Origin: Naegleria gruberi | Lineage: Eukaryota | DNA length: 64,000 nucleotides | Reading direction: 5' to 3' (one strand) | NCBI GenBank assembly: GCA_000004985.1 | Contig: GG738862.1 | Notes under the pieces: model-generated | What the model was told of the DNA's origin: nothing | Databases searched by the model: none | The model's input: only the letters and a program-made list of their open reading frames with translations | In this document: one piece after another, positions 3,444 through 4,022 of the stretch | Numbering within the stretch: the first letter of the stretch is position 1 | Layout of the letters: every line of letters starts with the position of its first letter | Position numbers and translations under genes: made by a program

Positions 3444-4022
3444 ATGCAAGAAGAATCAACCACTCCAATTAAACTAGTTGTTGTAGGTGATGCTGGTGTT
3501 GGCAAAACATCAACTTTGATTTCTTACACAGCCAATTCCTTTCCAAGAGAATACGTTCCAAGAGTGTACGATAATCTAGTTTCATCCATGATGGTAGATG
3601 GAAAAGTCTACAATATTTCCTTTTGGGATACTGCTGGTGCAGTTGACTTTGAGAAAATCCGAGTTAAATGTTATCCAGAAAGTCATGTCATTATTCTAAT
3701 GTTTGACGTAACAAAGAAATCAACATTTGACTCAATTGACTCAACCTTCCTTCCAGAAGTGCAAAAGGAATGTAAACAAGCAAAATTCCTTCTCGTTGGA
3801 AATAAGATTGATAATTCTCCTCGACAAGTTTCCAAAGAAGAAGCCAAGAAATATGCCTCAAGAAATAGTATGGAATATTTTGAGATTTCAGCCCAATCTC
3901 AGGAAGGACTGAAGATCTTGTTTGATCAGGTTGTGAGAATTGGTGCACCACTCCTTGTTAATTCAAAGCAAAGTAAGGGATCCAGTTCAGATTCTAAAAA
4001 GAAAGGTTGTACATGTCAATAA
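3444..4022 (+). CDS. Atypical Rho-family small GTPase with CaaX box (CTCQ)
   Basis: Contains GDAGVGKT, FPxEYVPxVYDN, WDTAGAVDF, LVGNKxD and SAQ motifs, then a polybasic stretch and C-terminal CTCQ. The Gln61-equivalent is Ala and the Gly12-equivalent is Ala. Confidence 0.75.
   Translation: MQEESTTPIKLVVVGDAGVGKTSTLISYTANSFPREYVPRVYDNLVSSMMVDGKVYNISFWDTAGAVDFEKIRVKCYPESHVIILMFDVTKKSTFDSIDSTFLPEVQKECKQAKFLLVGNKIDNSPRQVSKEEAKKYASRNSMEYFEISAQSQEGLKILFDQVVRIGAPLLVNSKQSKGSSSDSKKKGCTCQ

Follow-up and report, generated by a model that had tools for sequence, protein, structure and literature searches.

The question raised by one gene of Naegleria gruberi is whether a Rho protein that has exchanged its catalytic residues can still act as a GTP-dependent switch. 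The gene lies at positions 3444–4022 of a 64,000-nucleotide stretch of contig GG738862.1 (NCBI GenBank assembly GCA_000004985.1), which was analyzed over its full length and is referred to below as the window. An earlier note on this DNA had described the product as a Rho GTPase in which the equivalents of Gly12 and Gln61 are both Ala, and had compared it with the constitutively GTP-bound proteins Rnd and RhoH. Our analysis confirmed the two substitutions and added three sets of changes that the note had not mentioned: the replacement of the switch-I Thr35 by Arg, the replacement of Glu62 by Val and of Leu70 by Lys in switch II, and the loss of the Rho insert helix. The best reading, in which we have moderate confidence, is that the gene encodes a lineage-restricted, fast-evolving Rho/Rac paralogue of N. 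gruberi that has probably turned into a nucleotide-binding, hydrolysis-dead, and membrane-anchored pseudoGTPase, insensitive to the GTPase-activating proteins (GAPs) of the Rho family. In the published classification of pseudoGTPases, the closest class would be class ii, which includes the Rnd family (PMC5593906).

This gene has been annotated and catalogued before. The encoded protein is identical over 100% of its length (100% identity) to XP_002678288.1 (EFC45544.1; UniProt D2VBW1), which was deposited as a “rho family small GTPase” of Naegleria gruberi on a scaffold of 502 kb. The protein matched the Pfam Ras family (PF00071) over residues 10–165 with 147.3 bits (cut-off, 21.6; E = 3.8e-43). 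The features of the gene are as follows.

3444–4022, plus strand: intact single-exon coding sequence of 192 amino acids plus TAA; an uninterrupted open reading frame (ORF) with the ATG at 3444 and the TAA at 4020–4022.
3486–3509, plus strand: G1 motif or P-loop, GDAGVGKT (residues 15–22), in which the GxxxxGKT consensus is intact.
3540–3578, plus strand: switch I with the G2 motif, FPREYVPRVYDNL (residues 33–45), of Rho type; the counterpart in Rac is FPGEYIPTVFDNY.
3627–3671, plus strand: G3 motif and switch II, DTAGAVDFEKIRVKC (residues 62–76), in which DTAG is intact.
3801–3812, plus strand: G4 motif, NKID (residues 120–123), the guanine-specificity motif, intact.
3813–3833, plus strand: short loop between strand beta5 and helix alpha4, NSPRQVS (residues 124–130), at the site of the Rho insert helix of about 13 residues.
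3888–3896, plus strand: G5 motif, SAQ (residues 149–151), intact.
3996–4019, plus strand: predicted membrane-targeting signal, read from the sequence as KKK (residues 185–187), Gly, and the CaaX box CTCQ (residues 189–192).

To which residues of a canonical Rho protein the altered positions correspond depends on the alignment register. Residue equivalences were taken from a HMMER alignment of the protein to the PDB sequences of human Rac3 and Rac1 (E ~ 1e-37). Between query residue 8 and about residue 128, this alignment has no gaps and the offset stays at +5, which makes the register relative to Rac unambiguous. It was confirmed by a multiple alignment with Rac1 (the sequence of PDB 5fi0_B), Rnd3 (a sequence that agrees with PDB 1m7b_A at all 178 residues), and paralogues from N. 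gruberi. In the P-loop, G15-D16-A17-G18-V19-G20-K21-T22 corresponds to G10-D11-G12-A13-V14-G15-K16-T17 of Rac, which places A17 (codon GCT, 3492–3494) at the position of Gly12 and G18 at that of Ala13. In switch II, D62-T63-A64-G65-A66-V67-D68-F69 corresponds to D57-T58-A59-G60-Q61-E62-D63-Y64, and A66 (codon GCA, 3639–3641) thus occupies the position of Gln61. The motifs reported earlier, i.e., GDAGVGKT against the canonical GDGAVGKT and DTAGAVDF against DTAGQEDY, are therefore correct and in register, and both alanines stand in the ungapped Rac alignment as well as in the multiple alignment. An offset that restores the canonical Gly12 and Gln61, which had been named as the observation that would overturn the claim, was not seen in the alignment with Rac and Rnd3.

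The same alignment revealed changes beyond these two residues. In switch I, the motif is YVPRVYDN in this protein and YIPTVFDN in Rac; R40 (codon AGA, 3561–3563) is located at the position of the invariant Thr35, Phe37 is replaced by Tyr, and Tyr40 is replaced by Leu. YVPRVYDNL nevertheless agrees with the Rho-type sequence YxPTVFDNY at six of nine positions. In switch II, V67 (codon GTT), F69, K71, and K75 replace Glu62, Tyr64, Arg66, and Leu70, respectively. The equivalent of Phe28 is present. Of the five G motifs, G1, G3, G4, and G5 were found, whereas the Thr of G2 is replaced by Arg40; judged by these motifs, the protein belongs to the fold of the Ras superfamily but does not qualify as a canonical switch. 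A sequencing error was considered as the source of these differences and was rejected. Five separate codons are non-canonical, and two of them require two base changes each to revert (GCA for A66 is two bases away from either Gln codon), which is more than one wrong base call would account for.

We then evaluated how rare these changes are among 262 relatives that were collected in two database searches and aligned to the protein, 149 of which have a Rho-type switch I. Among these 149, Gly12 is conserved in 87%, Gln61 in 87%, and Thr35 in 97% (144/149), and positions 12, 35, and 61 are all changed in only one. Arg was found at position 35 in none of the 262 aligned relatives, and the combination of Ala12, Arg35, and Ala61 was not found in a motif survey of 268 relatives. 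Likewise, none of the other sequences that we examined combines the three substitutions with the absence of the insert. For what has been retained, we used 49 alignment columns that are ≥ 90% conserved among 56 canonical Rho-like relatives, and the protein agrees with 34 of them. The retained columns include G15, D16, G20, K21, and T22 of the P-loop, the Phe28 equivalent, DTAG, K121 and D123 of G4, S149 and A150 of G5, and the Cys of the CaaX box. Ten of the 15 changes in conserved columns are conservative (e.g., F to Y, L to I, and W to F), and non-conservative loss is limited to G12A, T35R, Q61A, L70K, and the deletion of the insert. Catalytic and switch residues are hit while G1, G3, G4, G5, and the CaaX box are spared, which is not what random decay would produce. 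These data suggest a selective loss, in which nucleotide binding, the fold, and the lipid anchor look maintained, and catalysis and switching look abandoned. An AlphaFold2 (AF2) model of the protein gave a confident G domain (predicted local distance difference test, 81.6; predicted template modeling score, 0.79), with low confidence only at the switch regions and the tail.

The tail had been described in the earlier note as a polybasic run followed by a CaaX box, and this description is accurate, although the basic run consists of just three lysines. The protein ends in DSKKKGCTCQ, with KKK encoded at 3996–4004 and CTCQ at 4008–4019, and C189 was aligned with the CaaX Cys of the relatives. 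CTCQ includes a C-x-C sequence, but one further residue follows it, so the ending fits a CaaX box better than the CC or CXC ending of Rab proteins. Endings of the CaaQ type recur in divergent Rho paralogues of N. gruberi (CTIQ, CILQ, CMLQ, CFLQ, and CIIQ), and CTCQ is therefore plausibly a real CaaX box. The Gln at its last position predicts farnesylation as the putative lipid modification.

A mechanism can be proposed from these residues. In the enzymology of Ras and Rho proteins, a side chain at position 12 blocks the arginine finger of the GAP, Gln61 positions the catalytic water, and Thr35 closes switch I. Recognition by effectors and GAPs fails in T35 mutants of Ras, and also when clostridial toxins glucosylate Rho proteins on Thr35/37. 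The switch-I Thr is the conserved residue of the G2 motif and contacts the gamma-phosphate and Mg2+ (PMC5593906). In the Naegleria protein, all classes of residues that bind guanine nucleotide are kept (the GxxxxGKT P-loop, the Phe28 equivalent, DTAG, NKxD, and SAx), and the protein would be expected to have nucleotide bound. The Ala at position 12 would obstruct the arginine finger with its side chain, and the Ala at position 61 would leave the attacking water unpositioned. With Arg at position 35, the contact with Mg2+ and the gamma-phosphate would be gone, and the “loaded spring” of switch I would be unable to close on Mg2+-GTP; without this closure, recognition by effectors and GAPs would be expected to fail. 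The change of Leu70 to Lys further removes part of the hydrophobic patch of switch II. Such a protein would not hydrolyze GTP at a useful rate, would be ignored by RhoGAPs, and would be located at a membrane through a farnesylated Cys189 and the short basic patch. Its role may be that of a constitutive, non-cycling adaptor or competitor, which would be regulated through its expression and turnover rather than by guanine nucleotide exchange factors (GEFs) or GAPs. Overall, it would work like a member of the Rnd/RhoH class, with a switch I more like that of a Rho protein blocked at Thr35/37.

The comparison with Rnd and RhoH made in the earlier note therefore needs to be divided. The part concerning residues holds, in that positions 12 and 61 are non-canonical as in Rnd3, but the part concerning a GTP-locked state is not supported in the form given. 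Rnd3 has kept Thr35 and the insert, both of which are lost here, so a GTP-locked active conformation cannot be assumed; with Thr35 lost, a canonical GTP-dependent switch is probably impossible. On the basis of these residues, a non-switching pseudoGTPase appears at least as likely as a protein locked in the active, GTP-bound conformation.

The missing insert also raises the question of whether the protein is a Rho at all. In alignments with Rac, a gap of about 14 residues was observed at the site of the Rho insert, and in the AF2 model the strand at residues 114–120 runs directly to the helix at residues 131–140 with no helix between them. Of the 149 relatives whose switch I is of Rho type, about 19 are likewise insert-poor (≤ 2 extra residues). 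In searches against the PDB, the top 60 matches of the full-length protein were all Rac or Cdc42. When residues 1–80 were used alone, the best 60 matches were all of the Rho family (89 bits for Rac1), whereas residues 71–192 alone matched Rab18 best (52 bits), followed by Cdc42 (46.7 bits) and Rac (approximately 41 bits). Profiles of insert-less Rho-like, canonical Rho, and Rab18-like proteins were built from the retrieved relatives, and the full-length protein scored 191.6, 184.8, and 157.4 bits against them, respectively; the Rab18-like set was recruited through 5-mers shared with the protein, and its scores are biased accordingly. By segment, the Rho profile was preferred for residues 1–70 (100 bits against 49 for the Rab18-like profile) and for residues 71–120 (42 against 35 bits), which contain a Rho-type xPEV in helix 3, and the Rab18-like profile was preferred for residues 121–175 (44.6 bits against 24.6–32.2 for the Rho profiles). 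A Foldseek search with the predicted model ranked Rac and Cdc42 first; the insert-less EhRho1 followed at ranks 25 and 28, and Rab18 came 46th. A reclassification as a Rab was considered and rejected on the profile scores, because both residues 1–70 and the full length favor Rho. Accepted Rho-like proteins without the insert exist, namely EhRho1 and TbRHP, and the protein is accordingly filed as Rho/Rac-derived and atypical, and apparently not a canonical Rho. The Rab-like last third would then be the appearance of a Rho once the insert is gone, because other insert-poor Rho-like proteins (e.g., P0183) look Rab/Ras-like in the same C-terminal region. XP_002668590.1, an N. gruberi Rac that is otherwise canonical and in which Gly12, Thr35, and Gln61 are present, has only about three residues more than this protein between NKxD and SAx; being nearly without the insert, it indicates that insert loss is not limited to degenerate paralogues of N. 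gruberi.

We also analyzed the position of the protein within its family. Besides the protein itself, no relative with > 41% identity was found in a word-indexed search of 5.8 billion proteins clustered at 90%, and none with > 48% identity when 1.84 billion cluster representatives were searched exhaustively with HMMER. Ten of the closest matches were identified by name; they belong to dinoflagellates, a foraminiferan, a snail (a molluscan RhoBTB), an amoebozoan, and metagenome contigs, and none of them to Naegleria. Such scattered matches would be expected for a fast-evolving orphan that is approximately equidistant from all Rho proteins. A Rho-like protein from the transcriptome of the dinoflagellate Yihiella yeosuensis, P0018 of EukProt, has His12 and Ser61, has lost NKxD (LITG), and lacks both the insert and the CaaX box; it is an independent case of a degenerate Rho without the insert.

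The Rho family comprises nearly 50 genes in N. fowleri and > 80 in N. gruberi, where some of its genes are acknowledged to be pseudogenes and many are divergent (Herman et al., 2021; PMC8296547, Additional File 4, Table S8). XP_002678288.1 is listed as “Rac” in that table, and no N. fowleri orthologue of it is given in the pairing column; the accession occurs once, on the N. gruberi sheet (PMC8296547). This row was the sole mention that we found in the literature for XP_002678288, EFC45544, or D2VBW1, and no mention of them was found in a main text. The earlier note had proposed examining whether the paralogues retain Gly12 and Gln61, and the answer is mixed. Gly12, Thr35, and Gln61 are all present in three canonical N. 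gruberi Racs, but not in several divergent paralogues: ACER01000078.1 has DTSGADGSY, in which Gln61 is replaced by Ala; XP_002678060.1 has GDQAVGKT and DTAIHEDVD; and XP_002680709.1 has GDTVSGKT and DTRGSVDYD. These divergent paralogues resemble the protein in belonging to the same expanded family and in having non-canonical motifs and CaaQ endings. They differ in that they are only 25–30% identical to it and in that many of them carry a fused F-box, BTB, or Kelch domain; it is a small GTPase that stands alone. A RhoBTB of N. gruberi, XP_002678166.1, has Arg in the Thr35 column (EYVPRRLDSY), in addition to GDIGCGKT and DVIGDE, and the change from Thr35 to Arg may therefore recur within the Rho family of this species.

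Known systems resemble the protein in part. To our knowledge, Rnd and RhoH are specific to animals; Rnd proteins are farnesylated. In Rnd and RhoH, the constitutive state has been attributed to the loss of Gly12 and to changes in switch II (PMC13236570), and Rnd proteins are pseudoGTPases of class ii, which bind nucleotide and have no catalysis (PMC5593906). Like Rnd1–3 (Rnd3 being also called RhoE) and RhoH, the Naegleria protein combines a Rho G domain with residues other than Gly12 and Gln61, intact nucleotide motifs, and a CaaX box, and by analogy both would escape GAP control and be regulated by abundance. At positions 12 and 61, Rnd3 carries Ser/Ser (verified in its sequence) and the Naegleria protein carries Ala/Ala; Rnd3 has Thr35 and the Rho insert, whereas the Naegleria protein has Arg35 and no insert. 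In the multiple alignment, its identity was 32% to Rnd3 and 38% to Rac1. It is not an orthologue of animal Rnd or RhoH, and its nearest relatives are Rac-like proteins of protists with approximately 40% identity.

Among Rho proteins of protists, EhRho1 of Entamoeba histolytica (PDB 3reg and 3ref) also lacks the insert helix and belongs to the top structural matches of the model, with 165–166 aligned columns and a sequence identity of 32%. EhRho1 keeps the canonical catalytic residues and is regarded as a working switch. TbRHP is a Rho-like protein of Discoba without the Rho insert, with a degenerate G3 (LCDSSGSE against LWDTAGQE) and a retained CaaX box, and its authors found no Naegleria orthologue of it (PMC3214021). 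The Naegleria protein shares with TbRHP a divergent Rho-like sequence in Discoba, the missing insert, a degenerate G3, and the CaaX box, whereas TbRHP is a protein of approximately 45 kDa with extra regions, is limited to Kinetoplastida, and has other substitutions (PMC3214021). Proteins of the Rab18 type resemble it in the P-loop GDAGVGK[ST], in the absence of an insert, and in approximately 50% similarity over the region from NKID to SAx. Rab18 keeps Thr35 and Gln61, however, and the Naegleria protein has a Rho-type switch I and interswitch and a C-terminus that reads better as a CaaX box than as CC or CXC. In the alignment and the motif survey, Ala12 was the normal residue in Rab18-like proteins.

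With these comparisons, the alternatives to a hydrolysis-dead, non-switching protein can be weighed. The earlier proposal in its full form, i.e., a constitutively GTP-bound protein of Rnd/RhoH type in a permanently active, effector-binding form with a farnesyl group and a basic patch as its anchor, is unlikely, though less so than the other alternatives. The residues at positions 12 and 61 fit it, being non-canonical as in Rnd3 and as described for RhoH (PMC13236570), as do the intact nucleotide-binding motifs and CaaX box. However, Rnd3 retains the Thr35 and insert that are missing here, a GTP-specific closed switch I requires Thr35 (PMC5593906), as T35 mutants of Ras also show, the changes of Tyr40 to Leu and Leu70 to Lys affect canonical residues of effector and GEF contact, and there is no orthology, with identity lower to Rnd3 than to Rac1 and with Rac proteins as the closest PDB relatives. 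A decaying duplicate without function, one of the > 80 Rho genes drifting towards a pseudogene, is a doubtful explanation. It would account for the lack of close relatives in both searches, the spread of the closest named matches over unrelated eukaryotes, the listing as “Rac” with no entry in the N. fowleri column, and the presence of pseudogenes and divergent members in the family. Against this, the ORF of 192 codons is intact, the fold is predicted with confidence, and the nucleotide motifs, hydrophobic core, and CaaX Cys have been spared by the losses, which affect catalytic and switch residues.

That the protein is an active GTPase with non-canonical catalysis, provided by a partner GAP in trans or by R40 as a built-in arginine finger, is improbable in our view. 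Catalysis in trans has precedents in the TBC-domain RabGAPs for Rabs and in RapGAP for Rap, and we know of no system that offsets the simultaneous loss of Thr35 and Gln61. The P-loop GDAGVGKT is of the Rab18-like type, in which Ala12 is normal, the C-terminal third scores as Rab18-like, and RGK proteins are active despite divergence at several G motifs (PMC5593906). The N-terminal two-thirds including switch I are nevertheless of Rho type, and Rabs and Rap keep Thr35. The more specific idea that Arg40 acts like the switch-I arginine of heterotrimeric G-alpha, allowing autonomous hydrolysis without a RhoGAP and without Gln61, would be far-fetched; at minimum, this protein and the N. gruberi RhoBTB with Arg35 could mark out a class of heterolobosean Rho proteins whose switch I has been re-engineered. 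It is very improbable that the gene is a mosaic, created by recombination or gene conversion, in which an N-terminal part of Rho type is joined to a C-terminal third of Rab18 type. The preference of the profiles does flip between residues 1–70 and 121–175, and Rab18 is the top PDB match for residues 71–192, but the insert-less Rho profile fits the full length best, residues 71–120 favor Rho, the insert-poor Rho-like relatives have the same Rab/Ras-like appearance in this region while the otherwise canonical Rac XP_002668590.1 is nearly insert-free, and the Rab18-like comparison set is biased by its 5-mer recruitment.

Several points also weigh against the pseudoGTPase that we favor. Nucleotide binding, hydrolysis, lipidation, expression, and localization are predictions from the sequence. 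Rab18-type GTPases with Ala12 hydrolyze GTP, so G12A alone is weak evidence and it is the changes in combination that carry the case; in addition, some GAPs supply a catalytic residue in trans. The loss of Thr35 could weaken the binding of Mg2+ and GTP and leave the protein nucleotide-free or GDP-bound. With no orthologue found in the searches and the catalogue described above against which to measure purifying selection, the gene may instead be a paralogue whose constraint was relaxed recently and which is decaying.

If the pseudoGTPase reading is correct, a non-cycling Rho would have evolved independently in Naegleria, in parallel with Rnd and RhoH of animals and TbRHP of kinetoplastids, and would go further by also dropping the switch-I Thr and the insert helix. 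It would provide a data point on the frequency of pseudoGTPases in expanded GTPase families and a natural test of a Rho scaffold without Thr35, and models of signaling in amoeboid motility would have to leave it out when working switches are counted among the > 80 Rho genes of N. gruberi. GTPase-deficient Rho proteins are a known kind, similar degeneration is found in several N. gruberi paralogues, and no long-standing question is opened. Compared with Rnd or RhoH, the protein is the more extreme case, with Arg for Thr35 and no insert; it is a modest curiosity and no surprise to a specialist.

The gene model and the surroundings of the gene were also examined. An in-frame ATG at 3351 would extend the protein by 31 residues, MALWLELQFIFAITLLSDVATFEKQNETSKK, which are partly hydrophobic (3351–3443, plus strand); the start at 3444 is the one used by the deposited model and all homologues, and it lies in an A-rich context. 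The region of approximately 1 kb upstream of the gene (2404–3443) is without a long ORF, which is a wide gap given the compact genome. Downstream, an ORF of 964 amino acids with a low-complexity N-terminus rich in N, S, and E and without a Pfam match begins approximately 180 bp past the stop codon (4201–7095, plus strand). Beyond it, an M24 peptidase is encoded at 8947–10410. The G+C content is approximately 33% throughout the window. No second GTPase gene was found in the 64 kb with tblastn queries of the protein itself, a Rac, and a Rab18, and no functional linkage with neighboring ORFs was seen, nor is any expected in a eukaryotic genome.

The remaining ORFs of the window encode typical Naegleria proteins, i.e., F-box proteins, actin, proteins with RGS domains, and DUF4116 repeats. 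The actin gene (22215–23405, plus strand) lies approximately 18 kb from the GTPase gene, and its ORF matches the Pfam Actin family over the full length (E = 1e-143). At least six ORFs are F-box or F-box-like (3–1274, 10556–12166, 19878–21818 on the minus strand, 40193–40852, 47650–48201, and 52519–54330), one of them with Sel1 repeats and one with leucine-rich repeats; a large expansion of F-box genes is known for Naegleria, and their number in the window agrees with it. Two ORFs on the minus strand (41376–42953 and 56984–58840) consist mostly of DUF4116 repeats, with five and eight matched stretches and E values of 3e-51 and 5.5e-94, respectively. RGS domains were matched in two ORFs on the plus strand, at 27986–29209 and at 62542–63141, the latter weakly (23.2 bits; cut-off, 23.9).

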